A stretch of 64,000 nucleotides of DNA from Acidobacteriota bacterium (GTDB lineage Bacteria > Acidobacteriota > UBA6911 > RPQK01 > JAJDTT01): contig OZ242374.1 in the NCBI GenBank assembly GCA_965209055.1, forward strand, positions 3,360,001 to 3,424,000. The letters run 5' to 3'. A model generated the notes under the pieces. The model did no database searches, had not been told where the DNA came from, and worked only from the letters and a program-made list of their open reading frames with translations. Both the position numbers and the translations under genes were made by a program. Positions 14,101-34,656 of this stretch are shown here, piece by piece (the first letter of the stretch is position 1; each line of letters opens with the position of its first letter).

Positions 14101-14132
14101 GAGCTTCCGGTTTCCTGCCGCCCACTGGAGGG

Positions 14133-14147
14133 GGGACTGTTAGTCCC
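14133..14147 (+). repeat. Left attachment-site core GGGACTGTTAGTCCC
   Basis: Identical to 34723-34737; dyad GGGA-CTGTTAG-TCCC. Confidence 0.85.
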
Positions 14148-14184
14148 AACTGTCCCTAAGTCAAAGACTACCGAACATTAACGT

Positions 14185-14270
14185 TTTCAATTATTTACCG
14201 GGTTCTTCGCCGAATCGGTAAAGTGGTTGACTCTCCATGTTTGACATGCTGAACAGGCAACAAACAGGCA
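14185..14270 (+). promoter_or_regulatory. IHF-like site and tandem integrase arm-type sites, left end
   Basis: TTTCAATTATTTA (14185-14197) is one mismatch from WATCAANNNNTTR; tandem AACAGGCA at 14252-14270 recurs at 34614-34628. Confidence 0.65.
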
Positions 14271-14316
14271 GCCGAATCGGTTCCTGAAAGCCGACGCGCC
14301 CTTTTTCCCTCTTCCG

Positions 14317-14748
14317 TTGCCTGGCTCAGAGACATTATCGAATGGGCTTTGCCGACCGTTGGTCGTCACCGGAGGACTCTGCCTGAGGCCGAAGGTGTCT
14401 GACTTCGAATGGCTCGGCATTCCCAAGAATCGGCATCCCCGGCCAGTGTACTACGGCGCGGTGGGGAAGACCCGCCGCTACATGGCGTTCAAACTGCCGA
14501 TTGCCTTCGAGGCGACCCGGACCATCTTCGTCCGTGTCGATCCGGGGCACTCGACCGACCAGGGCCTGCTCAACTCCTACGGCGGGGTGACGGCCGCCTT
14601 GAAGCGGGCGGTCGAGTTGCAACCAGCGGCGGAAGGCCGCTCCTTCCAGGTCGTGATTGACGGTGAACGCACGTGGCAGTCGCAACGGCTGATGGAGGCT
14701 CGTTTCGGCAGTGCGAAAAGAGGGTCTCGCGCCCGCTCCGGGATGTGA
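14317..14748 (+). pseudogene. Fragment of an MGE-associated hypothetical protein (copy 1 of 3)
   Basis: RYMAFKLPIA...FVRVDPG matches RYFPRKLPLA...FVYVGPG (18003 ORF); SYGGVTAALKRAV matches SYGGVTPALKRAI (18694 ORF). Confidence 0.6.
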
Positions 14749-14883
14749 ATGGGACAAAGGGGGTGGATTCACAAAAAGCGGTTCCGGTGACTCACAAATC
14801 CGTCTCCCCCGATCCTTTGTCGTTTCAATCAGTTACGGACCCATTTCCGGCCACCGGGTGGCCGCACGGGGAAAATGGAGGTG

Positions 14884-14980
14884 GACGGGAGCGACCCCCC
14901 CTTTTTGCCGCCCGGTGCGGGCGCGGGGGTGCTGCGCAATTCACATTTGCGCAGCACCCCCTGGGGGGGTCGCTCCCGTC
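14884..14980 (+). repeat. Nested hairpin module, copy 1
   Basis: Perfect 18-bp IR GACGGGAGCGACCCCCCC (14884-14901/14963-14980) enclosing a 15-bp stem (14925-14939/14947-14961). Confidence 0.85.
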
Positions 14981-15509
14981 TCAATTATCCTAGCGGACTG
15001 TTTCTATAAAGTCCGTAAACCATAATATATAAACGAGTTATGAAAATTCTACCACCGCTCTTCCCCCCATTCTTTCCACCGGGTTGAATTGGATGTCTTT
15101 GGCCCTTCGTGGCCGTGAACGGACGTACCCGTTCGGCCAAGCCGTGGAAGAGCGGTCGGTCGGCATCCTCGCCGCAGTGATCAGATCCTGTCGGGTTGCG
15201 GTCGTGCTTGAACCACTTTTCGCGGCGGAAAGACCTCCCTGGGAAAGGATAACGGCAGGTGATCGTCGGCCGCAAAGTCCTTACGCGGCACGCGATCCGA
15301 CCGCATCGTTCCGGACGCCATGGGTCACCTTATCCGCTCCGTGCCTCCACCCCGTCGGAGGTGGAAGAGTGGCGCTTCGTCAGATGCTCGCCCTCCATTG
15401 AGCGCGAGGCCGAAGGTCCGGCTCAGGAAGTCGATCCCCACGGCTTGACCGAACGGTTACGCGTTCAAGTCCTCCGTTGCGAAGACCCGGCGGCGTTGGC
15501 CAACGGCAG

Positions 15510-15724
15510 ATGGAGTTGGCGGCAACGCTGGGCGATCGTTACGACCACACGAAGATCTCCCATGTGGAGAAGCGACACTAGGCACTGCTACTGGATGGGG
15601 CGGTTAAGGCAACGCGCGAGTTGAAGAAAATCGAGGAGGAGTGGCCGGGTCTCAACTACGGGCTGACGCGGGGCATCCTCATTGTCGAGCCATCCGCACC
15701 TTCGGTTCTCTCACTCACCCAGTA
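15510..15724 (+). pseudogene. Possible XRE-type HTH regulator remnant
   Basis: MELAATLGDRYDHTKISHVEKRH*ALLLDGAVKATREL has an HTH-like pattern with an internal stop. Confidence 0.35.
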
Positions 15725-16049
15725 GGCGGCGCGGTACTTTCCACATCCCCCAGGGACTTTTCGTACCAATGCCTAGAGTTTTCTTCTCTTCACTTAGTGC
15801 GGCCTGGACTGTAACGGGGAGTTCCAACAGACTGACCGGGAGCATGAAGCGAAAGAACGAGTCACAGCTAGTGAGTGACAGTCGAGGACTTCTACCGGAG
15901 TTGCCTCCAAGCGCGGTTCGCGGGTTGGTAAGGGGACGGATCGCTGGTGGGAAAAAGCGTGCGCCTCTCTGAGATCATCTTACGGACGGAAAGGAAAAAG
16001 GGAACTATACAAGCCTGTTCGAGAACCAGATTGGACACAGGGGGAGAGA

Positions 16050-16958
16050 ATGACCACTGAGCTTAGACACCTAGAACCTGTCGATCTCCGAGAAGTTTGG
16101 CCTGACGAAAAGGTAGATTTCACTCCTTGGATCGCCGCCAACCTCGAAGTGCTGAGGAGTCCACTGGGAATGGAACTGATAGACCCGGTGCTGGAGCGGC
16201 CAGTCGGTCACTATCAGGCGGACATTGTTTGCAGGGAAGTCAAAACTAACGCCACGGTGGTGATTGAGAATCAACTGGAGCCGACTGATCATGATCATCT
16301 CGGCAAGCTCATCACCTACTCAGCGGGGTTGAAAGCTGACATCAGCATCTGGATTGCCAAGAAATTCAAACACGAACATCATGATGCGCTCCACTGGCTG
16401 AACAAGACCAACGGCGACAAGGATCAATTCTATGGCATCGAGGTCCACGTGCGGTCGAACGAAGATTCGTACGAACCGAAGTTTGTCAAAGTCGACCTCT
16501 CGAAACCCGCACGACGCCCACAGTCATCGCAAAAAAAACGTTACGAAGAATACGGGAGTGCTCTTAACACGTTTCTCAAGTCCAAATTCCCGGACGGACC
16601 GTGGAAGGGTATGACGGGGGGCAATATGGAATACACTGCAGGATACCCTGGGAAGAAATCTGGGGGGCCGTTTGGATTGACCGTAATGCCAAACAAGCCG
16701 GAGCACCGTGTGCGGGTAAAGGTATGGGGTCCAAAAGAGCATTTGCGCCGTCTCAAAAGGCGAGAGGAACTCAACAGGTTAGACGGCTTGAAGTGGGGAC
16801 CCCCAAAGAAGTCCGAGGGGAATTTCCACTGCACCCTTCCCGCTGATCCGAAAGAGAAGTCGGATTGGTGCCGGCAACACAAGTGGATCGCGGACTGTCT
16901 GAATAAAATGCATGAGGTATTCCTCCCACTCGTAAAAGAACTGATCCGTGGCGATTAG
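16050..16958 (+). CDS. DUF4268-type protein with N-terminal NucS-like PD-(D/E)XK nuclease domain
   Basis: VDLREVWPDE..DFTPWIA, ADIVC...VVIENQLEPTDHDHLGKLITY; lower GC. Confidence 0.75.
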   Translation: MTTELRHLEPVDLREVWPDEKVDFTPWIAANLEVLRSPLGMELIDPVLERPVGHYQADIVCREVKTNATVVIENQLEPTDHDHLGKLITYSAGLKADISIWIAKKFKHEHHDALHWLNKTNGDKDQFYGIEVHVRSNEDSYEPKFVKVDLSKPARRPQSSQKKRYEEYGSALNTFLKSKFPDGPWKGMTGGNMEYTAGYPGKKSGGPFGLTVMPNKPEHRVRVKVWGPKEHLRRLKRREELNRLDGLKWGPPKKSEGNFHCTLPADPKEKSDWCRQHKWIADCLNKMHEVFLPLVKELIRGD

Positions 16959-17013
16959 AGGAGGCGAAGATCCCGAGAATGGCTCACAGTCGCAACGGGC
17001 TTCCAGGGAAGTA

Positions 17014-17289
17014 CTATTTTCCAGTAATCACCCAGTCCAGGAACTTGTTGAGCAGGACCGCGAGGCTGGCGATCGTGATGCCAGCCTTCCACATCTTGGA
17101 CTCAAGAGCGGTGGTGGAAACCTGTAGGTCCGCTTTGACCTCGACAATCTCGGCCTTTACAGCGGCCACATCCTCCTTGGTGGCCAACTGGTCGCTGATC
17201 GGAATAGCACTAGCTGCGGCCCGAGCCTTTGACTCTGGCGCACCGGCAGCTACCAGCGCGTCATAGACTTCACTCACCATGACTCCCAT
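17014..17289 (-). CDS. Small coiled-coil protein with C-terminal TM helix (DUF1640/CCDC90-like)
   Basis: YDALVAAGAPESKARAAA, LATKEDV, heptad repeats, hydrophobic tail; RBS GGAGG. Confidence 0.6.
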   Translation of the reverse strand: MGVMVSEVYDALVAAGAPESKARAAASAIPISDQLATKEDVAAVKAEIVEVKADLQVSTTALESKMWKAGITIASLAVLLNKFLDWVITGK

Positions 17290-17314
17290 GAGCTTTCCTC
17301 CAACTCAGCCCAGT

Positions 17315-17731
17315 TTACCTTCTCGCCGATAGATCATGCAGCATCGGAAGGCCGTCCAGAGGTGCAGACCAGGACGAAATCTTCCCGGCGCTCAACGACT
17401 TCCAACACGGTGGCGGACCAAGTGCCCCGCCGGCGCGTCGGGGTTTCGATGTGGCACCCAGCCAAGTTCTTGGGGTGCTTGCCCGGGTTGCCCCGGTAGG
17501 ATGAACTCCAAAAGCCATACCCTTCATTTGTTCGGCCTGGACCGCGCGAAGCGGCGAGCGGACCCAGGCGCCGACGTTCACATTGCGTTCCGACTTCAGA
17601 CATTCCGGGGCTCTATCCAGATCGTCGTCAAGGCGGTATTCATCCTTCAAGCGTACCACAGTGGCACCTGTAGCCTGTGGTGGTACATAGATGATTTTGT
17701 CGTGGGGGAATTGGACGTCTTCGATGGCCAC
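17315..17731 (-). CDS. Hypothetical protein, possibly frameshifted
   Basis: ATG with GAGGAG upstream; overlapping ORF 17334-17603 may hold the true C-terminus. Confidence 0.3.
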   Translation of the reverse strand: MAIEDVQFPHDKIIYVPPQATGATVVRLKDEYRLDDDLDRAPECLKSERNVNVGAWVRSPLRAVQAEQMKGMAFGVHPTGATRASTPRTWLGATSKPRRAGGALGPPPCWKSLSAGKISSWSAPLDGLPMLHDLSARR

Positions 17732-17780
17732 AACCGGGCTTCAGGAATCTCCTCAGGGGCCTTCCCGCAGGGATCATTAG

Positions 17781-17877
17781 GACGGGAGCGACCCCCCCAG
17801 GGGGTGTTGCGCAGATGTAAATTGCGCCACACCCCCGTGCCCGCGCCGGGCAGCAAAACGGGGGGGTCGCTCCCGTC
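17781..17877 (-). repeat. Nested hairpin module, copy 2 (inverted relative to copy 1)
   Basis: Same 18-bp IR; reverse complement aligns to copy 1, with similarity extending to ~18020; ATCCCTGCGGGAAGGC at 17774-17759. Confidence 0.85.
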
Positions 17878-18002
17878 CACCTCCGCTTTCCCCGTGCGGG
17901 CGCGGCGAAGCCGGGAATGTGGCCGGAACTGCATGAGCGACAAAGAGATCGGGGAAATCGGAGGTGTAAGTCAAAAGGCTTCCGGGATGTAACTCGCGTC
18001 CT

Positions 18003-18457
18003 TTGTCTCCCTTACACCTCCCGATCGACACCGGGAAGCCCTTTCGCCTCCCCATGAACCTCGTCGATCCGCAGGTGACGCAGCTGTCGCAGGCGCTGCA
18101 GGCGCTGGGCCTTTCCCGGCGGCTGTTCCCGTGCCGCCACTATGCCGGCCATGCCCAGGGACGGAGCCGGTACTTCCCCCGCAAGCTCCCCCTGGCCCTG
18201 GAGGAGGACCGGGCGACCTTCGTCTATGTTGGTCCCGGCCGGGACACCGACTCGGAACTGCTCTCGTTGGGGGTGCGGAGCACGCCCGGCTCTGGACCGC
18301 GCTACGCGCACAAGACCATCCGGTTCACGTGGTCGCGGTGGCCCGCGACGACCTCCGCCGGGAGCGGGCCGGGAAGGTCCTGCGGCGCTGGGCCAGCCCG
18401 AGTCCCAAGGCCGTGTTCCACCTCCGGGGGCCTGCCCGGCGAAGTCCCGGGATGTGA
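18003..18457 (+). pseudogene. Frameshifted fragment of the MGE-associated hypothetical protein (copy 2)
   Basis: Coding similarity is split across ORFs 18003 and 18131; ends CCGGGATGTGA like 14317-14748. Confidence 0.55.
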
Positions 18458-18592
18458 AACACACATGGGGGGGTGTGTTCCACTCTCGGAGCGGCGAGTG
18501 TTACACGCTCCCTTTCCGCCATCCTGTTGAGCCCCTTCGGTTTGTCCCCGCCCTCCGGGAGGAGGCGCGCCCGGACGGGGAGTCCGGGTAGG

Positions 18593-18701
18593 AGAAGTGA
18601 GCGACCCCCCTGTTTTCGTGCCTCGCACGTCACGCAGGCGCTGCCGGTGTTCCACTCCGTTGCACACCGGCGCGGCATGCGCGGGGGGGTCGCTCACTTC
18701 T
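18593..18701 (+). repeat. Hairpin module, copy 3 (divergent)
   Basis: Perfect 18-bp IR AGAAGTGAGCGACCCCCC (18593-18610/18684-18701); ATCCCTGCGGGAAGGC at 18708-18723. Confidence 0.8.
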
Positions 18702-18960
18702 TCATCGATCCCTGCGGGAAGGCCTCTGCGAAGATCGGGATAGGGAGAATTCCAGCCTGTCGTGAGAAAATGCGCCGCATGGGAGAGGACAACGGAAACT
18801 TGCAATGGGAGGCAAAGCAAGCGGCCAGGCGCTTGTCGATGGTCACCTCGACGGCGCGACCGGTTGCCAACGGTTCCAACCCGATCGCCCGCTTCAGCGC
18901 GGGCGTCACCCCGCCGTAGGAACCGAGCCGCGTGTGCTGGATCGCTGACGGAAACGCGAG
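18694..18960 (-). pseudogene. C-terminal fragment of the MGE-associated hypothetical protein (copy 3)
   Basis: LGSYGGVTPALKRAIGLEPLATGRAVEVTID aligns with LNSYGGVTAALKRAVELQPAAEGRSFQVVID; boundaries approximate. Confidence 0.5.
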
Positions 18961-19209
18961 GAACCTCCACTGGGTGGTGCAGAGTTCGCAGACCACAAAA
19001 CGGACTGCGCCCGTTGGTAGGAATCCCCGCTCCGGCAACGCCTCGCGGTGGATCCTGGACGATGTCCAATGGCCTATCCCCAACCCTTGGTCCGGCCTCG
19101 CCAAGCCAACACAGGCCATATGTTGCGGTCCGGATTATGTGGCGGACAGTCCGTATCATCCTGCTGCACGTGAGAACACACCGTATCTCAGCAACATAAT
19201 CTCCTTCAC

Positions 19210-20205
19210 TCAGAGCGCGGCCAGGAAGGCGATCAGTCCCGTGTTTGTCCTCCACGGGCGATCCGAACCGGGCTCGGCGGCATCGCAGAGCGCCATGGCC
19301 CTGGCCTTCATCTCCAGGTCGATCTCGGCGTAGATGTTGGTCGTATCGAGGCTGGCATGACCGAGCCAAGCGCGGATCGTGTTCAGATCGATGCCGGCCT
19401 GGAGCAGGTGGCAGGCGCTGGTGTGACGGATGGTGTGCGGCGTGACCCTCCTTCCGGCGAGCAACGGGACGCGGGCTGCAGAGCGCTCGACGAGCCGATA
19501 GACCCCGAACCGGGTATAGGACCTGCGCTGCCGGCTGAGGAAGACGGCATCCCCGGCTGCCCGTCCCTGCAAGAGTTCCGTGAGCGCGGCTTCGGTCCGG
19601 GGCCACAGCGGACACTGTCGGTGTTTTCCGCCCTTGCCGTGGATGTTGACGAGCGCTTGCCCGCCGCCGCGTCGTCCGATTTGCAGATCGCCCGCCACGA
19701 GCTGAGTCGTTTCGGAGACGCGTGCCCCGGTGTTGTAGAGGAACAGGAGCAGGGCGTGTTCGACCCGGCCTCTCGGCGTTCGCCGGTCCGGGACCTCGAG
19801 CAGTTCCTTCATCTCGGTCTTGCTGAGCCAGCCGATCGGCTTCGGCGCGGCCTTCTTCGAGGCAATCGCACGGATACTGCCGCTCCACTCGATACGTCCG
19901 GGATCGCGGCTGGCGATGAAGCGTGCGAAGGCCCGGATCGCCGATAGCCGCTGGTTGCGGGTCTGCACGGAGCAACCGCGGTCCTGCTCGAGATAGTCGA
20001 GGAACTGGCGCACGTGCCGGGCCGTGAGGTCCTGCACCGCGATCCGTTCGACTGGCTTGCGGGCCTTGGCGCCGACGAACGGCAGCAGGAGTGCGAAGGT
20101 ATCGCGGTAGCTCTTCTGAGTGTTGCGGGCGAGGTTGCGCTCGGTGACGATGTAATCGGCCAGGAAGCGGCGCAGCCAGGGGCCGAGCGTGCGGGGATTA
20201 CTCAT
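19210..20205 (-). CDS. RIT tyrosine recombinase C
   Basis: NTGARVSE, GKGGK, HTIRH, LGH, IY; SAM-like N-terminus RNTQKSYRD. Confidence 0.92.
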   Translation of the reverse strand: MSNPRTLGPWLRRFLADYIVTERNLARNTQKSYRDTFALLLPFVGAKARKPVERIAVQDLTARHVRQFLDYLEQDRGCSVQTRNQRLSAIRAFARFIASRDPGRIEWSGSIRAIASKKAAPKPIGWLSKTEMKELLEVPDRRTPRGRVEHALLLFLYNTGARVSETTQLVAGDLQIGRRGGGQALVNIHGKGGKHRQCPLWPRTEAALTELLQGRAAGDAVFLSRQRRSYTRFGVYRLVERSAARVPLLAGRRVTPHTIRHTSACHLLQAGIDLNTIRAWLGHASLDTTNIYAEIDLEMKARAMALCDAAEPGSDRPWRTNTGLIAFLAAL

Positions 20206-21151
20206 GGTTTCCTCCTCCGTTGACGTAGGCGTCGAAACGGACCGAAGCCTGATGCAGGAGTTCGGGCGTCATCGACAGATAGATCCGGGTGCCGTTGAGA
20301 TCCGTGTGGCCGAGCCAGGTGGATAGCGTCGGCAGCAGTCGCTGGACATCGGCGCCCTGCCGGTACCAGGACTCCAGCCGGTGTACGGCTGCGGCATGGC
20401 GCAGGGAATGAAAGCACGGACCTCGCCGTCCGTCGTTGCGACCTTCGATTCCGGCCTCCTTGAGCAGCTTGGTGAACGCGTGCGCGGCGGTGCTCTGGGC
20501 CAAGGGCGTCCCGTCGCGGTTGGCGAGGAAGGTCGAGGCCGTGCCCTTGGGGAAGGGGCGTTGTGCGCGCCGGGCGGCATAGGTCTTCAGCGCGTCGGCA
20601 AGTTGCCGGCAGACGGGAACGAGGCGGGTCTTGTAGAACTTGGTGTGACGTATGGTCAGCAGCGCATCGGGCAGGTCCACATCGTCGAGGGTCAGGCGCT
20701 GGGCCTCGCCGAATCGCAGCCCCGCACCGTAGAGAAGCTGGAGCAGTGTCCGCAGGGTATCGGCGTCGATCTGGATCGAACGTTGCCGACTGACATCGAT
20801 GGCGTCGAACAGGCGTTGCAACTCGTTGCGGGAGTACACGTAAGGTGGTGAGGACCGCGGTCGAGTCGGCTCTTCATCGCGCGCCGGAAGCGGCGACCGG
20901 GTCACGTAGCTGCGGCTGATCGCGTAGCGGTAGAAGCCGGCCAGGACGCTGTACTTGTTGGCCCGGTACCGGGTTATCGGACCTTGACCGGCAAGGAAGT
21001 CGAGAACGTGGGCTGGGGAGACGGCATCACAGCCGGCGCTCCCGCCGACCTGTTTCAGGAACCGGTGCAACAAGTATGCGCCGGTGTCGAACTTGGCGCC
21101 ATGGGCCTGACGCCAGGCGATATAGTCGTTGACCGCATCCCGGAGCATCAT
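20198..21151 (-). CDS. RIT tyrosine recombinase B
   Basis: GLRFGE, TKFYKTRLVP, HSLRH, LSTWLGH, IY. Confidence 0.92.
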   Translation of the reverse strand: MMLRDAVNDYIAWRQAHGAKFDTGAYLLHRFLKQVGGSAGCDAVSPAHVLDFLAGQGPITRYRANKYSVLAGFYRYAISRSYVTRSPLPARDEEPTRPRSSPPYVYSRNELQRLFDAIDVSRQRSIQIDADTLRTLLQLLYGAGLRFGEAQRLTLDDVDLPDALLTIRHTKFYKTRLVPVCRQLADALKTYAARRAQRPFPKGTASTFLANRDGTPLAQSTAAHAFTKLLKEAGIEGRNDGRRGPCFHSLRHAAAVHRLESWYRQGADVQRLLPTLSTWLGHTDLNGTRIYLSMTPELLHQASVRFDAYVNGGGNHE

Positions 21152-22380
21152 GTCAGGCCCTCAAGATCGATGTCGGCGACCTCACGGAGGGTGCTGAGGT
21201 TCACCTTGGCGTACACGGCGGTGGACGAGGTGCTGCGATGGCCGAGGTAATCGCCGACCTCCTTGATCGACAGGCCGTGGTCGAGCAGGTGCTGGGCGGC
21301 AGCATGACGAAGCGCATGGGCACCGCGACGTTTGCCGGTGATACCGAGCTGATCGAGGCGTGTCCTGACGACGTTCGAAACTGTCTGCCGGGTCACCGGA
21401 CGGATCGGAGCGATCAGAGTGAGGAACAGTGCCCTCTCCGGGCGCAAGGCACGAACCTCGGTGAGGTAACGCACGATCGACTGCCCGACGCCGCGGGAAA
21501 GCGGATAATGATGGGGGCATCCCGACTTGGGGCGGCGTACCCGTAGCGTCTCCTCTTCCCAGTCCAGATCATCGAGGAGCAGGCCGGCGACCTCGCGGGC
21601 ACGCAACCCGTACGCGATCAGCACCATCAGGATGGCACGGTCGCGAAGGTCGGCCGGCCGGTTGCCCTCGGAGGTTGCGAGCAGGCGGAGCACCTCGCCC
21701 CGGTTGAGTCCCTTCGGGAGTGTCTCGCCGGGATGGAACCGCACCGGCATGATCCCGTCAGCCAGCCCCAGTGTACACCAGCCCTGGCGTTCGGCGAACC
21801 GGGAAAAAGTGCGCAGACGCTGCCCGTAAACGCGGACCGTGCTCCGACTGCAGCCACGGGCGTGCCAGCGCATGACCGCCCGGTCGATGTCGGCGACAAC
21901 GACCGCATCCAAGGCAATGCCCCACTCGCCGAGCTAGTCGAAGAAGCAGTCCATCGTATGGCAGCAAGTACGGATCGTCACCTCGGACCATCCGCGCTCT
22001 TTGCGCATCCACTCCTTGAAGATCGTGGCCTCGGCGACGTGGGCGTGCCGTTGCCGCACCCTACAGGGCTCATCGAGCAGACCCGCGAAGCGTAGCCATC
22101 GCACTGCGCGGCTGACGAAGATCCGGCGCACCCCCGGTCGCGCCGAACGACACGGTCGACGGTCGGTCGCCGCCTCGATCCGGGGCAGGCTGACGCGCTC
22201 GCCTGCCCGCAAGTCCAGAAGACGAATCAGGGTGATCTGAGCCGCTGCGATCGTGCGTAATGTGAGCGGTCGCGCGCCCTCCTGCGCGCAATGCCTCAGG
22301 TAGCTCAACCGTTCTTCCAACAACGGTTCGCAGCGATAACGGCCTATCGTGCCGCGGTCGATGAACAGGGCCTCGAACAT
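21148..22380 (-). pseudogene. RIT tyrosine recombinase A with in-frame TAG
   Basis: ORFs 21934-22380 and 21148-21912 share a frame (CFFD*LGEWG); catalytic YGLRARE, HALRH, LGH, Y lie downstream of the stop. Confidence 0.85.
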
Positions 22381-22521
22381 GATCGTGCCTCCTTGTGGGG
22401 TGAAGACATGATTATGGTCGAACGACTTCCCGTCAGATAATTATGTTGCTGAGATACGGCGTGTTCTCATGTGCAGCAGGACGATGCAGACTGTCCGCCA
22501 CATAATCCGGACCGCAACATA

Positions 22522-22555
22522 TGGCCTGTTATGTGGCACTCAACATAACAGGCCA
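22522..22555. repeat. Perfect 13-8-13 palindrome (loxP-like geometry) at RIT right end
   Basis: TGGCCTGTTATGT-GGCACTCA-ACATAACAGGCCA. Confidence 0.8.
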
Positions 22556-22674
22556 AATGGCGGGCTTGTTTTTTCGGTAGTTCTCGATGATTGCGCCTGA
22601 GTGGGTTTCAGGCGGCATATCGGCGGACCATGGCTCCGCGCAGGACTTCAAGCTGGCGCTCTACGCAAGGCGGA

Positions 22675-23898
22675 TCAACGGAGCCGGACGGACGCCCGAG
22701 GCCGACTCTCGTCGGCCAGATAGCCCGCCCAGTTGTCCATGAGACGCCTCCGCCGCTCGAACAGGTCCGTCCTCCGGTAGGCCGCCTCGACCGGATTGCG
22801 CACCTTGTGCGCCAAAGCCGCCTCCGCCACCTCGCGCGGATGTTCCGTCTCCTCCGCCACCCAGTCCCGGAAACTCGACCGGAACCCGTGCGGCACCGCC
22901 GCGATCTTCAACCCCCGCAGCAGGTCCGACATGGCCGTATACCCGATGGGCTTTCCACCCACCCCCGGAAAAACGAGTGGGCTGCCGCCAGCGAGCGCCC
23001 GCGCCTCCTCCAGGATCTCCAACGCTCGCCGGGCCAACGGAACGCGGTGCTCCCGATTCACCTTCGTCCGTGGGGCCGGGATGGCCCATACTCCTTCCTC
23101 CCGGTCGATCTCCTTCCACGCGGCCCCACGGACCTCGCCGGAGCGTGTCGCCGTCAGGACCAGGAACTCGAACATCAGCTTCAACATCGGCCGCTTGTTC
23201 GATGCCCGCACCGTCTGGAGTGCGGACGCCACTTCACCGTGAGGCAACGCCCGCATGTGACGCACGGCGGTCCCCTGCGAGCCGAGTACCGGACCGATCC
23301 GGTCGCAGGGGTTGTCGGGCCGAAGATCCATCGCCACGGCCCACTCCAGAACCGCGCGGATGCGCTGGCGCAGCTTCCGGGCCGTGGCGGCCTTCTCGTG
23401 CCAGATCGGAGCCAGGATTCCGATCACGTCCGCGCTCGTCACCTGCGCAATCGGTATCTTCCCGATATGAGGCAAGACGTAGCGCTCCAGGCTCCACAGC
23501 CAGAGCCGCGCATGCCGGGGGGAGCGCCAGCCCGGCCGCAGCTGCTTCCAGACCGCCCCAGCGGCGTCCGCGAAGCTGGGCATCGACTCGGCCCGCCGGT
23601 TCGCGGCCCGGGGGTCGCCCCCGTCGCGGGCCAGCTTCCGGTTGGCGAATGCTTTCTCGCGCGCTTCCTTGAGCGAGACGAGGGGGAATCCACCGAGCCC
23701 GAGCTCGGTTCGCCGGCCCCGGATGGTGAGGCGCTGGATCCAGCCCCGGCTCCCTGTAGGCCGGACGTAGAGGTAGAGGCCGTGGCCGTCGCAGTATCGT
23801 CCGGACTGGCTCACGTTGCGGACAAAGGCCGGGGTCAGGGCATTGAGGGGATGCGGCCCGCGCGGCTTGCGTTTGGGAGGTTGTTTCGGGAATCTCAT
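22675..23898 (-). CDS. P4-like tyrosine integrase with arm-DNA-binding (DUF4102) domain
   Basis: GRYCDGHGLYL...LGLGGFPLVSLKEARE, TATRSGE, PHGFRSSFRDW, ALAH, AYRR. Confidence 0.92.
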   Translation of the reverse strand: MRFPKQPPKRKPRGPHPLNALTPAFVRNVSQSGRYCDGHGLYLYVRPTGSRGWIQRLTIRGRRTELGLGGFPLVSLKEAREKAFANRKLARDGGDPRAANRRAESMPSFADAAGAVWKQLRPGWRSPRHARLWLWSLERYVLPHIGKIPIAQVTSADVIGILAPIWHEKAATARKLRQRIRAVLEWAVAMDLRPDNPCDRIGPVLGSQGTAVRHMRALPHGEVASALQTVRASNKRPMLKLMFEFLVLTATRSGEVRGAAWKEIDREEGVWAIPAPRTKVNREHRVPLARRALEILEEARALAGGSPLVFPGVGGKPIGYTAMSDLLRGLKIAAVPHGFRSSFRDWVAEETEHPREVAEAALAHKVRNPVEAAYRRTDLFERRRRLMDNWAGYLADESRPRASVRLR

Positions 23899-24357
23899 AC
23901 CTACCACTATATATACCACAATATGGTGGATGCAAGGGGATGAAGCGGGTCGGTATGGGACAAGGTCGGATGTCCGATCTAGTTGTAAACCAATCATAAA
24001 CAAACACTTATGGACAATACTGGACTTACCTGGACGATGCACCTGATTAAATCTAGGCTTCCTAGCGGGAAGGCTCCAATAGGGCTACTCTGGCAATCTG
24101 TGTAGTCAATCCTCTATGAGCCAGCGCAGGCCATCGGTCTTGCCGATCTGGGGTGGAAAGTGGATCTGGTTGAACGCTCGATCCGGAATGGGAACCAGGA
24201 CCTCGTCGAAGCGCTGGAGCAGAACGCCGATAGACAAGTGAGACTATTTGACCTTGCCGTTCGGTAACGAATTGCAAAAGGTCCAAGTGATACTCCACCT
24301 TGCTCCGGTCGGCCAAATTGGCCAAGATTGACGTTTGCCATCAACTGTAGGAGTGGC

Positions 24358-24542
24358 ATGCGGAAGCCGAGCGCGAAAGACGCGAAGTACGGCTTCGGCC
24401 GACGCATCGGCCTCGCCCGCGCCGCGCCCGTCACGGTGACCAAGCACGGGCGGTTATCGTGGCGCTCTTGGTCGAGGAATACGAGCGCCTGAAGGCGCTT
24501 GACACACCTGAGGCACGCTCGGGAACGGAGGAACGGGAATGA
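24358..24542 (+). pseudogene. Phd/YefM antitoxin, frameshifted
   Basis: MRKPSAKDAKYGFGR..ARAAPVTVTKHGR, then in another frame [17 protein letters not shown]; GGCCAAATTGGCC dyad upstream. Confidence 0.7.
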
Positions 24543-24573
24543 CGTGGAACAGAACGGGAGGCCGCTGAGCCGG

Positions 24574-26898
24574 ATGGACAAGCGAGGCCTCTCAGAGCGT
24601 GACATCTGCACGAAGTTCATCACGCCCGCTCTGCGCAACGCCGGGTGGGACGAGATGTTGCAGATTCGCGAAGAGGTGAGCTTCACCCAGGGCCGGATCA
24701 TCGTGCGGGGCAAGCTGGTCGCACGCGGCAAGGGGAAACGCGCCGACTACATCCTTTATCTCAAGCCAAACATCCCGATCGCCGTGATCGAGGCGAAGGA
24801 CAATTCCCACAGCCTCGGCGACGGCATGCAGCAGGCTCTGGATTACGCCGAGATCCTGAACGTTCCCTTCGCGTTCTCTTCGAACGGCGACGGCTTCGTG
24901 TTCCACGACCGTACGGGGGCCAGTACACCGCTTGAGTCGGACCTTTCTCTTGAAGACTTTCCGTCACCCGCCGATCTGTGGGCGCGCTATCGGGCCTGGA
25001 AGGGCCTGACGCCGGAAGCCGAGGAGATCGTCCTTCAAGACTATTTCGAAGACGGCAGCGGCAAGACGCCGCGCTACTACCAAGTCAATGCCATCAACGC
25101 GACAATCGAGGCCATCGCCAAGGGGCAGAACCGTATCCTGCTCGTCATGGCCACGGGCACGGGCAAGACCTATACCGCCTTCCAGATCATCTGGAGGCTA
25201 TGGAAGGCGCGCCGCAAGAGACGCATCCTGTTTCTCGCCGACCGCAACGTGCTCGTCGATCAGACGATGACGAACGATTTCCGCCCGTTCGGCGGCACAA
25301 TGACCAAGCTCTCGCGCCGGATCGACCCGGCGTACGAGGTCTATCTCGGCCTCTATCAGGCAATCACCGGACCGGAGGAACGCCAGAAGACGTACCGAAA
25401 GTTCTCACCGGAGTTCTTCGATCTGATCGTGATCGACGAATGTCACCGGGGCAGTGCTGCCGACGATTCGGCGTGGCGCGAGATCCTTGAGTACTTCTCT
25501 GCCGCAACCCAGATCGGTCTCACCGCCACGCCGAAGGAGACGAAGTACGTCTCCAACATCGCCTATTTCGGGGAGCCGGTCTTCACTTACTCCTTGAAGC
25601 AGGGCATCAACGACGGTTTCCTCGCGCCCTACAAGGTGGTCAAGGTCCATATCGATCGGGACGTGGAGGGCTACCGCCCAGAGAAGGGAAAGGTCGACCG
25701 CGTCGGCGAGCCAGTTGAGGATCGCGTTTACAACTTGATGGACTTCGACCGAACTCTGGTCATCGACGAACGGACGACACTCGTCGCGCAGAAGGTCACG
25801 GCTTTCCTGAAGGAGAGTGGCGATCGTTTCCAGAAGGCGATCATCTTTTGCGTCGATCAAGAGCACGCCGCGCGGATGCGTCAGGCGCTGATCAACGAGA
25901 ACGCGGATCTCGTCGAGGGCAACTCACGTTACGTCATGCGGATCACCGGTGGAGATACTTTGGGACAGGCCGAACTCGGGAACTTCATCGATCCGGAATC
26001 GAAATACCCCGTCCTGGTCACCACATCGCGCCTGCTGTCCACCGGCGTCGACGTCCAGACTTGCCGGTTGATCGTGCTCGACCGAGCAGTGGGGTCGATG
26101 ACCGAGTTCAAGCAGATCGTCGGCCGCGGTACCCGCGTGCACGAAGACACACGAAAGTTCTACTTCACGCTCATCGACTTCCGGGGGGCCACGGGTCATT
26201 TCGCGGACCCGGACTTCGACGGCGAGCCGGTCCAGATTTACAGGCCGGAGGAAGACGGTCCGATCGCGCCACCCGATGGGCCGGATCCCGGCCCGAACGG
26301 GAACGGCGACGTAGATCCACCGCCGGGGCCACAGAAGAAAATCTATGTCGATGGCGTCGAAGTGGCCATCGTCGCTGCCCGGGTGCAATACCTCGACGGG
26401 CACGGCAAGCTGGTGACGGAGTCGTTGCGTGATTTCACGAGGAAAGCCCTGCGCCGGCGCTTCGCGAGCCTTGACGACTTCCTGAACCGTTGGAACGCCG
26501 CAGAGCGCAAGCAGGCAATCATTGATGAGATGGAGGCCGAGGGCCTGCCGCTGACCGTGATCGCCGAAGAGTTGGGCAAGGATCTCGACCCCTTCGATCT
26601 CGTCTGTCACATCGCCTTTGACGCCAAACCGCTGACCCGCCGCGAGCGGGCCGAGAATGTCAAGAAGCGGGACGTGTTCGCGAAATACGGAGGTCAGGCC
26701 CGCGCTGTGCTCGATGCGTTGCTCGACAAGTACGCGGACGAGGGCATTCTCAATCTCGACGACGCCAACGTCCTTAGAATCCCGCCACTCGACCGACTCG
26801 GTACACCGTTGGAACTGGTCCGCGCCTTTGGCGGGAAGCCCGGTTTCGAGCGGGCCGTGCACGATGTTCAATCCGCCCTCTATCGCGAGATCGCCTAA
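24574..26898 (+). CDS. hsdR: Type I restriction enzyme R subunit (EcoAI/EcoEI-like)
   Basis: ADYIL...IEAK nuclease, [25 protein letters not shown]; start taken at [12 protein letters not shown]. Confidence 0.95.
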
Positions 26899-26901
26899 GA
26901 G

Positions 26902-28353
26902 ATGTCCGTCAGCACGCTCGTCAAGTCGATTCAGAACATCATGCGCCAGGACGTGGGCGTCGATGGCGATGCGCAGCGCATCAGTCAACTGTGCTGGATG
27001 TTCTTCCTCAAGATCATCGACGATCAGGACCAGGAGCTCGAAGTTCTAAAGGACGGATACCGTTCGCCCGTACCTGACCCATTGCAATGGCGGAGTTGGG
27101 CCGGCGACCCGGAAGGCATCACAGGCGAGGAGTTGCTCGACTTCGTCAACGGCGATCTCTTTCCGAAGCTGAAGGAACTTCCGCGCAGGGCCGGCCCTCG
27201 CGCCAGCGTCGTGCGCGACGTGTTCGAGGACGCCTACAACTACATGAAGTCCGGCCCGCTGCTGCGGCAGGTTGTCAACAAGATCAACGGAATCGACTTC
27301 AACAACCTGACCGACCGGCGGCACTTCGGCGATATCTACGAGCAAGTCTTGAACGATCTGCAATCGGCCGGCAATGCGGGCGAATACTACACGCCACGCG
27401 CCGTGACCTCGTTCATGGCCCAAATGATCGACCCGAAACCGGGCGAGACCCTGCTCGATCCGGCGTGCGGCACTGGCGGGTTCCTCACCTGCGCCATCCG
27501 TCATATGCACGAACGCTACGTGAAGCGGACCGAAGATGAGGCAAGGATGCAGGCCTCCCTGCGGGCCATGGAGAAGAAGCCACTCCCCCACATGCTCGCC
27601 GTCACGAATATGCTCCTGCACGGCATCGAAGATCCGTCGTTTCTGCGCCACGACAACACACTGGCGCGCCCCTACATCTCTTGGGGCCGGGACGACCGCG
27701 TGGACATCGTGTTGACCAATCCGCCGTTCGGTGGCAAGGAGGAGGACGGCATCGAATCGAACTTCCCGAAGCACTTCCAGACGCGCGAGACGGCTGACCT
27801 GTTTCTCGCCCTGATCGTCCGACTTCTGAAACCCGGCGGCAGGGCTGCCGTGGTCCTACCCGACGGCTCCTTGTTCGGCGAGGGTGTCAAGACGCGGCTC
27901 AAAGAGCACTTGATGAGGGAATGCAACCTTCACACCATTGTGCGCCTGCCGAACTCGGTGTTCTGTCCCTACGCTTCGATCGGGACGAACTTGCTGTTCT
28001 TCGAGAAAGGCGAACCGACCAAGGATGTCTGGTTCTGGGAACACCTCGTACCTGAGGGCCAAAAGGCCTATTCAAAGACCAGACCCATCCGGCTGGAGCA
28101 TCTTGAGGACTGTGCCGCTTGGTGGGGCGGGGCGGAACGTAAGAGCCGCGAGGAAGGTGAACGAGCTTGGAAGGTGACTGCCGAGGAGATCGCTACGCGC
28201 GGCTACAACCTCGACATCAAGAATCCTCATACCGAAGAAGAGGACCTTGGCGATCCCGAGATGCTACTGGAGGAGCTGACGCGTGCCGAGGCCGAGGTGA
28301 ACTCAGTGCGAGACCAGTTGAAGGGAATCCTGACAGAGGCGCTGTCACGGTGA
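26902..28353 (+). CDS. hsdM: Type I RM N6-adenine methyltransferase
   Basis: GEYYTPR, DPACGTGGFL, NPPF. Confidence 0.95.
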   Translation: MSVSTLVKSIQNIMRQDVGVDGDAQRISQLCWMFFLKIIDDQDQELEVLKDGYRSPVPDPLQWRSWAGDPEGITGEELLDFVNGDLFPKLKELPRRAGPRASVVRDVFEDAYNYMKSGPLLRQVVNKINGIDFNNLTDRRHFGDIYEQVLNDLQSAGNAGEYYTPRAVTSFMAQMIDPKPGETLLDPACGTGGFLTCAIRHMHERYVKRTEDEARMQASLRAMEKKPLPHMLAVTNMLLHGIEDPSFLRHDNTLARPYISWGRDDRVDIVLTNPPFGGKEEDGIESNFPKHFQTRETADLFLALIVRLLKPGGRAAVVLPDGSLFGEGVKTRLKEHLMRECNLHTIVRLPNSVFCPYASIGTNLLFFEKGEPTKDVWFWEHLVPEGQKAYSKTRPIRLEHLEDCAAWWGGAERKSREEGERAWKVTAEEIATRGYNLDIKNPHTEEEDLGDPEMLLEELTRAEAEVNSVRDQLKGILTEALSR

Positions 28354-33294: not shown

Positions 33295-33520
33295 ATGATG
33301 ATCGGCAAGGCAGTCGTACTGATCTCAGGTACCCAACCGTAGGCTCTTCAGCGTTGCGGCTACGGCCCAGTACTTGGGAATGTCCATCGGTACGATTCGC
33401 AAACTGGCCGATATGAACATCATCAAAGCCAGAGCCGAATTCGACACCGCCGACCGGCGCCGTCGCGTCTTAGCCCGGGAAGACTTGAACCCCTGCGGCG
33501 ATTCTCTGGAGCCGTGTTAG
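33295..33520 (+). pseudogene. xis: Excisionase/RDF (HTH_17-like), frameshifted
   Basis: MMIGKAVVLISGTQP, one extra base, then RLFSVAATAQYLGMSIGTIRKLAD; directly upstream of int. Confidence 0.7.
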
Positions 33521-33567
33521 GATTCGCCGCAACGGCGAAGAACCCGGATCCAGAAAGGAGGAGATGC

Positions 33568-34656
33568 ATGGGCATCTACAAAGTGAAGGATCGCCGGGGG
33601 AGAAGACGCTATGTCGTCAGCAAGTACTGGCCGCACGGATCCGGTCGGCTCCGAATGTACGCCCCCAACTACCGGAGCGCACAGGCGCTTCAAACACGAA
33701 TCGAGTCCAGCATCCTGGACGGCACCTGGAAGCAGCTCAAGGAGGAGCTCGCCGGCGGGAAACGCACCATCTGGACGGTGCACAGCTTCTACGAGCGTTT
33801 CTTCGAGGAGTATTGCAAACCTCGCATGCGCTCCCGGCGTCGCTATGCGCTCTCGTTCAAGAGCCTCAACGCCATGCTGGGGAACATTCCCCTGAAGGAG
33901 TTCCGACGCAAGGACCTGTACCGCTACGTCGCCCAGAGGAAGAAGCAAGTGCAGCCGGCCACGGTGAACCGCGACATCGCCGCCCTCAGCAAGCTGTTTT
34001 CCTACGCGCTGGAGTGCGGGGAAGTGGACACGCACCCGCTGGTGAGATTCCCCAAACTCAAAGAACCCAAGAAGGTCTTCCGGCCCTTGACGGTTCCACA
34101 GTTCCGCGACCTGGTCGAGGCGATGGACAATCCGTACCTGCAAGCCATGGTTGCGGTGATCGGCGAGACGGGAATTCGGAAAGGCGAGGCGTTGTCGCTC
34201 ACCTGGAAACGGGTGGACCTGTCCCGGAGGCTGCTATGGGTGGAATTCACCAAGAACGACGAGACGAGGGAGATCCCGCTGTCGAAGTACGCTGCTGGAT
34301 ATCTGGCCGGGCTGGTTCGTTACCTGAACACGCCATACGTTTTCGTCAACACCCGGACCGGGACGAGATGGGTGAATCCGGACAAGCCATTGCGCCGCGC
34401 CGCCGAGCGAGTGGGGTTGAAGGTCGGATTTCACGATCTGAGACGATTCCGGTGCAGCCATTGGCTGATGCAGGGTGTGGACGTGAGGACGGTGCAGAAG
34501 CTGATGGGACACTCATCCATCAGCACGACCATGCGCTACGCCGGGTACGTCAGTTCGCATGCGCTTGCCAGCATTCGGGAGGCACAGGCTACCGAAGACT
34601 CCCAAACGCAACCGGCAACAAACAGGCAACGGGCAGGAAATAGGGTGAGTGACTAG
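33568..34656 (+). CDS. int: Tyrosine recombinase/integrase of the outer island
   Basis: PATVNRD, TGIRKGE, TKN, FHDLRR, MGH, TMRY; RBS AGGAGG. Confidence 0.93.
   Translation: MGIYKVKDRRGRRRYVVSKYWPHGSGRLRMYAPNYRSAQALQTRIESSILDGTWKQLKEELAGGKRTIWTVHSFYERFFEEYCKPRMRSRRRYALSFKSLNAMLGNIPLKEFRRKDLYRYVAQRKKQVQPATVNRDIAALSKLFSYALECGEVDTHPLVRFPKLKEPKKVFRPLTVPQFRDLVEAMDNPYLQAMVAVIGETGIRKGEALSLTWKRVDLSRRLLWVEFTKNDETREIPLSKYAAGYLAGLVRYLNTPYVFVNTRTGTRWVNPDKPLRRAAERVGLKVGFHDLRRFRCSHWLMQGVDVRTVQKLMGHSSISTTMRYAGYVSSHALASIREAQATEDSQTQPATNRQRAGNRVSD

Follow-up and report, generated by a model that had tools for sequence, protein, structure and literature searches.

A three-way-junction DNA site beside gene X in an Acidobacteriota genome, a candidate origin of transfer whose flanking motif is an integration target

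A 64,000-nucleotide (nt) stretch of an Acidobacteriota genome (assembly GCA_965209055.1, contig OZ242374.1, positions 3,360,001 to 3,424,000 of the forward strand; hereafter the window) contains three copies of a hairpin site close to remnants of a single gene, here called X, which raises the question of what such a site and gene do together. The original prediction, made from the sequence of the window, offered three answers: a cis-acting origin resembling an origin of transfer (oriT) or double-strand origin (dso), a recombination site, or a structured RNA, in each case as part of an undescribed gene-plus-site mobile unit. Comparison within and between genomes suggests that the site serves as an oriT that X binds and nicks, a reading to which a probability of about 0.6 is assigned. 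Among the three answers, the origin is the best supported, purely through its context, since the site lies between X and a coupling-protein gene and no relaxase of the families searched was found. Recombination is directly evident for the 16-nt motif that follows the hairpin, a chromosomal attachment site (attB) of islands carrying P4-type integrases. The term "mobile unit" proved misleading, since gene and site appear to be the DNA-processing module of integrative and conjugative or integrative and mobilizable elements (ICEs or IMEs), which is not self-mobile.

Anatomy, linkage and covariation of the composite site

The three predicted hairpins are all present, with perfect inverted arms of 18, 19 and 18 nt. 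Copy 1 (14884..14980, plus strand, loop class A; arms 14884-14901/14963-14980) has a DNA folding energy of -54.1 kcal/mol (z -12.1), and copy 3 (18593..18701, plus strand, class B; arms 18593-18610/18684-18701) one of -47.7 kcal/mol (z -9.3); copy 2, inverted and also of class A (17781..17877, minus strand; arms 17780-17798/17860-17878), carries the apical loop ATTTACA at 17816-17822, where the plus strand reads TGTAAAT. The constant 12-nt core GAGCGACCCCCC occurs exactly six times in the window, two per hairpin, compared to a mean of 1.37 matches in the shuffled window, with 7 matches reached by 0 of 100 shuffles. The outer arms differ in the compensatory manner that had been described (GGACGG/CCGTCC in copies 1 and 2 versus AGAAGT/ACTTCT in copy 3), and the single inner hairpin noticed at first was found to be two, making the structure a three-way junction.

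An array of short boxes precedes each junction. For copy 1, the array (14744..14796, plus strand) comprises an inverted TGTGAAT (14744-14750), ATTCACA (14767-14773) and ACTCACA (14790-14796), and the word recurs within the junction's apical loop (14939-14945). The array of copy 2 (17965..18017, minus strand) consists of ACTTACA, AGTTACA and an inverted GTGTAAG, TTACA-type boxes that agree with its own loop, while that of copy 3 (18453..18508, plus strand) contains GTGTTCCACTC (18475-18485), GTGTTACACGC (18498-18508) and an inverted relative (18455-18463), with GTGTTCCACTC again in the junction loop (18648-18658). The reported alternation of TCACA and TTACA boxes is therefore real, with TCACA at copy 1, TTACA at copy 2 and a word of its own at copy 3, and the upstream similarity of copies 1 and 2 takes the form of a 209-nt inverted homology (79%). 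Copies 1 and 3 do come after remnants of one gene family; the sequence CCGGGATGTGA, however, which had been taken for the 3′ end of that gene, is not its end, as the stop codon of the intact gene lies further upstream, GATGTGAAT being the first (inverted) box. The claim that one 16-nt motif follows every copy was correct for copies 2 and 3, which have an intact mini-palindrome exactly matching ATCCCTGCGGGAAGGC (17759..17774, minus strand, and 18708..18723, plus strand, its only exact occurrences in the window), and incorrect for copy 1, where the motif is broken by an island: the hairpin is followed by ATCCTAGCGG joined directly to ACTGTTTC, the junction with the inserted island, beyond which lies unrelated DNA of lower GC content.

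The composite site recurs in the 6.08-Mb genome, its parts being, in order, three boxes (one inverted, two direct), about 60 nt, the three-way junction, 6-12 nt, and the mini-palindrome, ATCCCT-N(1-4)-GGGAAGG. Three elements make up the junction: a conserved outer stem (GGGAGCGACCCC/GGGGTCGCTCCC), a short hairpin on the 5′ side and, on the 3′ side, a longer one that carries the word of the upstream boxes in its apical loop. A gapped pattern of the core matched 58 places exactly and its reversed control none; with one mismatch allowed per core, 69 near-exact hairpins were identified, 51 of loop class A and nine each of classes B and C. The sequence after the hairpin is ATCC(C)(T)-N-GGGAAGG, variable at its center, in 65 cases, an island junction of the copy 1 type in three, and a variant in one. 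A family of 69 copies, many without an intact gene and some in arrays spaced 540-900 bp apart, could be a selfish short repeat that spreads by itself, of the miniature inverted-repeat transposable element (MITE) or repetitive extragenic palindromic (REP) type. Such an origin is highly improbable, however, given that the copies diverge by 8-30% and sort into three loop classes, with gene variants to match, that they lack their own terminal inverted repeats and target duplications, and that their position relative to X and the type IV secretion system (T4SS) genes is fixed across phyla. X also has no transposase family match, for which reason insertion sequences of the IS200/IS605 group and elements of the REP-associated tyrosine transposase (RAYT) type were dropped as candidates.

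A search of one genome per species returned at least 596 candidate stretches, at least 566 of them confirmed, and the best 80 were examined. These loci belong to Acidobacteriota, Gemmatimonadota/Longimicrobiales, Terriglobia and one metagenome-assembled genome of Dehalococcoidia, many of them from sponges. The core hairpin lies within 700 nt after X in 76 of the 80, at a distance of about 190 nt (68 of 80 when a perfect stem of at least 10 bp was demanded), with VirB8 encoded just upstream in 70 and a coupling protein just downstream in 66; ArdC is present in 50 and a P4-like integrase in 16. The gene linkage that the original prediction looked for in other genomes is thus found there, and so is the covariation.

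Folded as single-stranded DNA, 10 of 10 representatives of different lineages formed the outer stem and two inner hairpins (z -3.4 to -12.1). Covariation was counted in an alignment of 31 sequences against a structure written by hand from the fold of one of them, a choice that favors this structure: paired cells amounted to 88.2% (42-52% with slid partners), changes on both sides were seen in 14 of 36 pairs, and the covariation score was 0.194, compared to 0.101 for shuffles, none of 500 being as high. The structure was written by hand because RNAalifold, given ordinary MAFFT alignments, resolved the outer stem but the inner helices only in part; the outer-stem exchanges CG/UA/AU and GC/CG/UA, at four to six positions, appear in this unbiased run as well. 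Loop and boxes also change together. Across the 76 loci, the 150 nt upstream contain 5.12 matches per locus to 6-mers taken from the apical loop, versus 0.50 in shuffled upstream DNA and 0.95 when compared with loci of other loop classes, and at least one loop-box match is present in 71 loci, the words varying by lineage (TTCACA, TTACAT, TGTACC, GTGCAC, TGCGCA and TGTTTCC). Such co-change is what a sequence-specific protein leaves behind when its binding sites drift jointly, and the TCACA and TTACA boxes first noticed in the window were therefore a real lead.

A fold of this kind could instead act in a transcript, as a structured RNA or messenger RNA element between X and the coupling-protein gene that serves processing, stabilization or translational control. 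Transcription would run through the junction, since the genes on either side point the same way; in addition, GGAAGG precedes the downstream start codon by a short distance in many loci, and the folds are very stable. The pairing itself argues otherwise, as G-T cells (59) and A-C cells (48) are about equally frequent and neither strand is favored; folding energy is lower for the complementary strand in 72 of the 76 loci, and with no wobble bias the folding strand is left undecided. No known family was reached in Rfam, where the only match, RF04341, scored 23.2 bits against a gathering score of 53.1 (E 0.76, a chance-level plastid match), and a scan for terminators and promoters gave no terminator-like site. 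Moreover, 40 of the 69 copies in the genome persist without a recognizable X gene within 700 nt, and the loop word is repeated in the double-stranded boxes upstream. A role as RNA, the third answer of the original prediction, is accordingly very unlikely.

Gene X, its conjugative setting and the case for an origin of transfer

Intact X encodes a protein of 307 amino acids (aa). The genome has six near-full copies, two of them with clean frames (307 and 310 aa; GC content at third codon positions 0.82), and most X genes upstream of its hairpins are broken. The window holds three decayed pieces: one at 14317..14748 (plus strand) covering residues 129-211 and 258-305 with an internal deletion, a frame-shifted one at 18003..18457 (plus strand) covering residues about 111-234, and a short one at 18832..18939 (minus strand) covering residues 260-295. 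The window copies are relics, with broken X genes and one module split by a nested integrase island.

No sequence match to X was found in Pfam, NCBIfam or PDB, 34 relatives of X gave no Pfam family beyond weak MarR-type matches, and in the ESM Atlas only "hypothetical protein" clusters were hit. Homologues are nevertheless numerous, with 1872 representatives at E <= 0.001 among 1.84 billion and 3205 clusters at E <= 0.001 in a word-indexed search. A few literature word searches returned no description of X or of the site, which is thin evidence of absence. The AlphaFold model of the full protein (pLDDT 91.7) has a MarR-like winged helix at its N terminus (4xrf, Z 8.5, rmsd 3.1, 81 residues aligned), and the C-terminal 212 residues folded alone reach a pLDDT of 92.8. 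Structures at the top of the list for this second domain are almost all PD-(D/E)XK nucleases, including SdaI (2ixs; Z 7.2, rmsd 3.9, 119 residues aligned), NucS (2vld; Z 7.0), CdiA-CT (4g6u; Z 6.7), AF1548 (Z 6.5) and the nickase N.BspD6I (Z 6.2), so that the model probably represents a PD-(D/E)XK-like fold. Polar residues conserved among 34 sequences are Y85 (33), D112 (33), K162 (K or R, 32), D178 (32) and H194 (31).

The surroundings of X are those of a conjugative element. An intact class C element in the same genome encodes, in order, AlpA, a primase-helicase with CHC2-zinc-finger and AAA_25 domains, VirB2, VirB3, VirB4, VirB9, VirB10, VirB6, VirB8 and X, followed by the site, the coupling protein, an open reading frame (ORF) of 252 aa, ArdC and an ORF of 293 aa. 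The site thus lies inside a conjugative element, beside DNA-processing and coupling-protein genes, and its inverted repeat adjoins a conserved short sequence able to hold a nick. Profiles of five relaxase families (PF03432, PF13814, PF08751, PF03389 and PF07514) had no match in this genome, although the blank for PF13814 (Replic_Relax) is weak because that model matched no control genome either. Intact X copies of class B are ArdC::X fusions beside a P4-type integrase, and some small islands are reduced to integrase, ArdC::X fusion and site, a content that looks like the make-up expected of a mobilization module.

The closest known proteins are the MOBC relaxases (TraX of pAD1/pTEF1 and MobC of CloDF13; PF13814), in which, as is probable for X, a winged helix at the N terminus precedes a domain resembling restriction endonucleases. 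Their gene, too, adjoins the coupling-protein gene, as observed in pTEF1. According to a review (PMC12857230), the binding repeats of TraX lie tens of bases from the presumed nick region, as the boxes do here. The differences are that X is longer at its C terminus, that the site is a three-way junction with a loop repeating the box word, that the hosts carry ICEs of Acidobacteriota and Gemmatimonadota rather than plasmids of Bacillota or enterobacteria, and that X has no match among plasmids in PLSDB. X would thus resemble MOBC relaxases in architecture without being a detectable member: architecture and neighborhood appear to agree with this class, and membership fails at the level of sequence and profile.

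In the preferred reading, the composite site would act as oriT: the winged helix of X would bind boxes and loop, its PD-(D/E)XK-like domain would cut one strand in or near the mini-palindrome, and the cut strand would be handed to the coupling protein. Were the gene-sense strand cut 3′ of the hairpin, as in classical origins, the side with coupling protein and ArdC would be the first to reach the recipient, with the T4SS genes arriving last, an order that would suit an anti-restriction gene. Anatomy, conservation, covariation, synteny and att junctions are read from the sequences, and the binding, nicking and transfer steps of this scheme are inferred. A predicted complex between X and the cytoplasmic portion of the coupling protein, computed without controls, scored 0.23 against a mark of 0.32.

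Several results weigh against this proposal. The fold assignment is only probable because the structural matches of the C-terminal domain are middling (Z <= 7.2) and Foldseek against PDB returned nothing at E <= 0.001 for either the whole protein or that domain. The canonical D...(D/E)XK triad could not be placed on the predicted strands, with the conserved residues left unmapped, and X may therefore be catalytically inactive or have another geometry. No homologue was found by tblastn in 72,556 PLSDB plasmids. The MOBC profile PF13814, which recognized the MOBC protein of pTEF1 as a positive control (28.5 bits, cut-off 25.3), matched none of 34 X-family members at E <= 1, and hhalign of the X profile against that same protein, the sole representative, gave a probability of 0.2% (E 0.3) over 50 winged-helix columns; pTEF1 was used since neither the annotation of CloDF13 nor Pfam yielded a usable MobC. 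The relaxase search covered five of seven Pfam families, Mob_Pre and Rep_trans being left out, and tyrosine-recombinase-like MOBM relaxases are indistinguishable here from many integrases. The conserved ORF of 293 or 252 aa could be the true nickase. Finally, GGAAGG stands about 12-14 nt before the start codon of the coupling-protein gene in Gemmatimonadota loci, and because of this position the conservation of the motif could in part be that of a ribosome-binding site.

The 293-aa ORF (L018:6760-7641, minus strand) has relatives in 43 of the 80 loci and no Pfam family. Compared with X, it shows a weak winged-helix match (hhalign E 0.028) and appears to be a second candidate DNA-processing protein of the element.

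Many of the same features would also fit a site of replication or priming. Either the boxes would be iterons and X a Rep-like initiator, or the junction would serve the primase-helicase, after transfer, as a single-strand initiation site or single-strand promoter. Boxes, a structured region and a winged-helix protein of 300 aa do resemble iteron origins; the element encodes a primase-helicase; the complementary strand is the more stable one in nearly all loci (72 of 76); and the junction stands at the border between the T4SS genes and the block holding ArdC. The location and domains of X are, however, at odds with this explanation, as the T4SS operon includes the gene, with VirB8 and the coupling protein rather than the primase as its neighbors, and the second domain is nuclease-like instead of another winged helix. 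In addition, no other candidate for a relaxase with its oriT was found in the element. Replication or priming as the function of the site is thus considered unlikely, and an origin of transfer preferred.

The mini-palindrome as an integration target

Copy 1 shows that the motif beside the candidate oriT has a second use. The left half of its mini-palindrome is the left junction (attL, 14985..14996, plus strand), the right half is the right junction (attR, 24059..24074, plus strand, TTCCTAGCGG followed by GAAGGC), and the core TCCTAGCGG is present at both (14987-14995 and 24060-24068). Between them lies an integrated island of 9.06 kb (14997..24059) with a P4-type tyrosine integrase at its right end (22675..24042, minus strand; Arm-DNA-bind_3, Phage_int_M and Phage_integrase domains). 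Since motif halves at 14996 and 24059-24074 flank the island, it is nested in the copy 1 module. The uninterrupted arrangement was found in another genome (L022), where DNA matching window positions 24061-26000 (91.4% over 1946 nt) comes immediately after an intact X, its junction and ATCCCTAGCGGGAAGGCTCC. With a repeated core, a terminal integrase and an uninterrupted site, the copy 1 motif has served as attB for an island of the P4-type-integrase family. A contig joint from 14990 to 24066, with CTGC in between, was not counted as an empty-site allele, since it most likely derives from the paralogous uninterrupted copy at G000:2190417.

Conserved left ends of this island occur 12 times in the genome and right ends 10 times; seven of the 12 left ends abut a junction and ATCC..GCGG, and five of the 10 right ends read ..gcgg followed by GAAGG. 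The remaining ends have a different, REP-like hairpin target, with junctions ..CCCGGCGG to actgatt and ..cccggcgg to ACTGCGTTGCGATTCGGG beside the hairpins (left ends G000:571499, 2474503, 4956953 and 83994; right ends 68130, 580077, 2485184 and 4968579).

These observations permit an alternative explanation, that the site is primarily a recombination target, junction and mini-palindrome together forming the attachment site of P4-type integrases, much as tRNA genes do elsewhere, with no role in conjugation. Att junctions are seen directly in the motif, in the window and at other copies, an island junction lies in the motif of three of the 69 hairpins of the genome and three of 76 loci elsewhere (L029, L043 and L069), and a P4-like integrase match is located within 12 kb of 44 of the 69 hairpins. 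Crossover, however, uses the mini-palindrome only and leaves junction, boxes and loop covariation unexplained. The same integrase family also targets unrelated hairpins, and in other phyla the site sits inside the T4SS cluster, with an integrase in only 16 of 80 loci. That integration is the primary function of the whole composite site is quite unlikely; an origin of transfer with an adjoining integration target accounts for the site better.

Four loci (L034, L064, L093 and L100) have a P4-like integrase after a truncated coupling-protein gene, about 1 kb past the site and 51-78% identical to the integrase of the window, an arrangement that suggests a second insertion point or a shortened mobilizable derivative.

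The island carries copies 2 and 3 head to head, X remnants, low-GC DNA, the integrase and a RIT element (recombinases in trio). The latter, which is complete (19111..22547, minus strand), has three tandem tyrosine-recombinase genes (19210-20205, 20198-21151 and 21148-21912) between terminal inverted repeats of 90 nt (94% complementary). It is missing from contigs of runs X1, X5 and X6 in which 19110 is joined directly to 22548, and in contigs of X5 and X7 its end is linked to its start (22549 to 19116), pointing to a circle or a tandem copy. Close to the left end of the island, a segment between 24-nt inverted repeats (15124..15461; 92% complementary) is present in both orientations among paralogues: relative to the neighboring island end, the segment (about 290 bp) faces one way in three paralogues, that of the window included, and the other way in five. 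In runs X1 and X7, some contigs have opposite-strand joints at 15125/15460. The segment may be an invertible switch in the island arm, although the joints may also stem from paralogues. Cargo ORFs at 16050-16958, in a low-GC and otherwise unique stretch, and at 17014-17289 and 17315-17731 (both minus strand) gave no family match above threshold; the 138-aa cargo ORF also follows the motif at several other copies.

Homology around copy 1 spans 14127 to 14996, its ends being repeated more often than its middle. The 5′ part is a conserved non-coding segment (14127..14316, plus strand) with 31 copies in the genome, always co-oriented with a downstream junction hairpin that is mostly 533-3569 nt away. 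This segment is AT-richer, contains the words TTGACT and TTGACA, and may be a promoter region or the left terminus of class A islands. Directly after the original motif of copy 1, on the far side of the inserted island, a type I restriction-modification system (hsdR, hsdM) occupies 24499-28353, and a further tyrosine integrase is encoded at 33514-34656; copy 1 probably belongs to a defense island.

Relation to known elements and implications

P4-type tyrosine integrases are known to use attB sites in tRNA genes. The case described here is similar in its Arm-DNA-bind_3 integrase and in a crossover within a short symmetric core, resembling a stem-loop, that is repeated at both island ends, and differs in that the target is a conserved motif beside a conjugation site, not a tRNA gene; ARAGORN found no tRNA in the window. 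Integron attC sites are likewise folded hairpins that follow short gene cassettes and are sometimes arrayed. Integron cassettes were nevertheless dropped from consideration, as the stems here are perfect and without extrahelical bases, the nearby integrases are of P4 type and not IntI, and no GTTRRRY boxes were seen when the window sequence was read by eye.

A further parallel is offered by "iOriT" elements, integrative elements that have an oriT only (Ares-Arroyo et al., bioRxiv 10.64898/2026.01.13.699239). Many copies of the present site likewise stand on islands that lack both a T4SS and an intact X (40 of 69 hairpins have no X within 700 nt), and copy 1 has a type I restriction-modification system as its neighbor. 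Compared with those elements, many of the copies here are visibly decayed modules of relaxase and oriT rather than clean oriT-only islands, and the oriT-adjacent motif doubles as an integration site, for which no counterpart was noticed in the portions of the preprint consulted.

A wider scheme can be advanced as a tentative and rather doubtful proposal: that X, combining a winged helix and a nuclease-like fold without profile similarity to MOBC, is a relaxase family of its own that serves T4SS elements of Acidobacteriota and Gemmatimonadota; that its oriT is a three-way junction displaying the recognition word in a single-stranded loop as well as in double-stranded boxes; that P4-type integrases have evolved to target the mini-palindrome on the nick side; and that islands landing there come to lie next to a functional transfer origin and become mobilizable, giving rise to the arrays and nested islands.

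For the window itself, the practical value of these results is the correct annotation of a nested island. If X and the site are indeed the missing relaxase-oriT pair, many elements of soil and sponge bacteria would become interpretable, and the transfer of dozens of small islands with defense genes would have a plausible route. In that case, the lineage-specific boxes would represent a direct and testable code for protein-DNA specificity, and an oriT-adjacent motif that serves as integration target would link integration and mobilization mechanistically.

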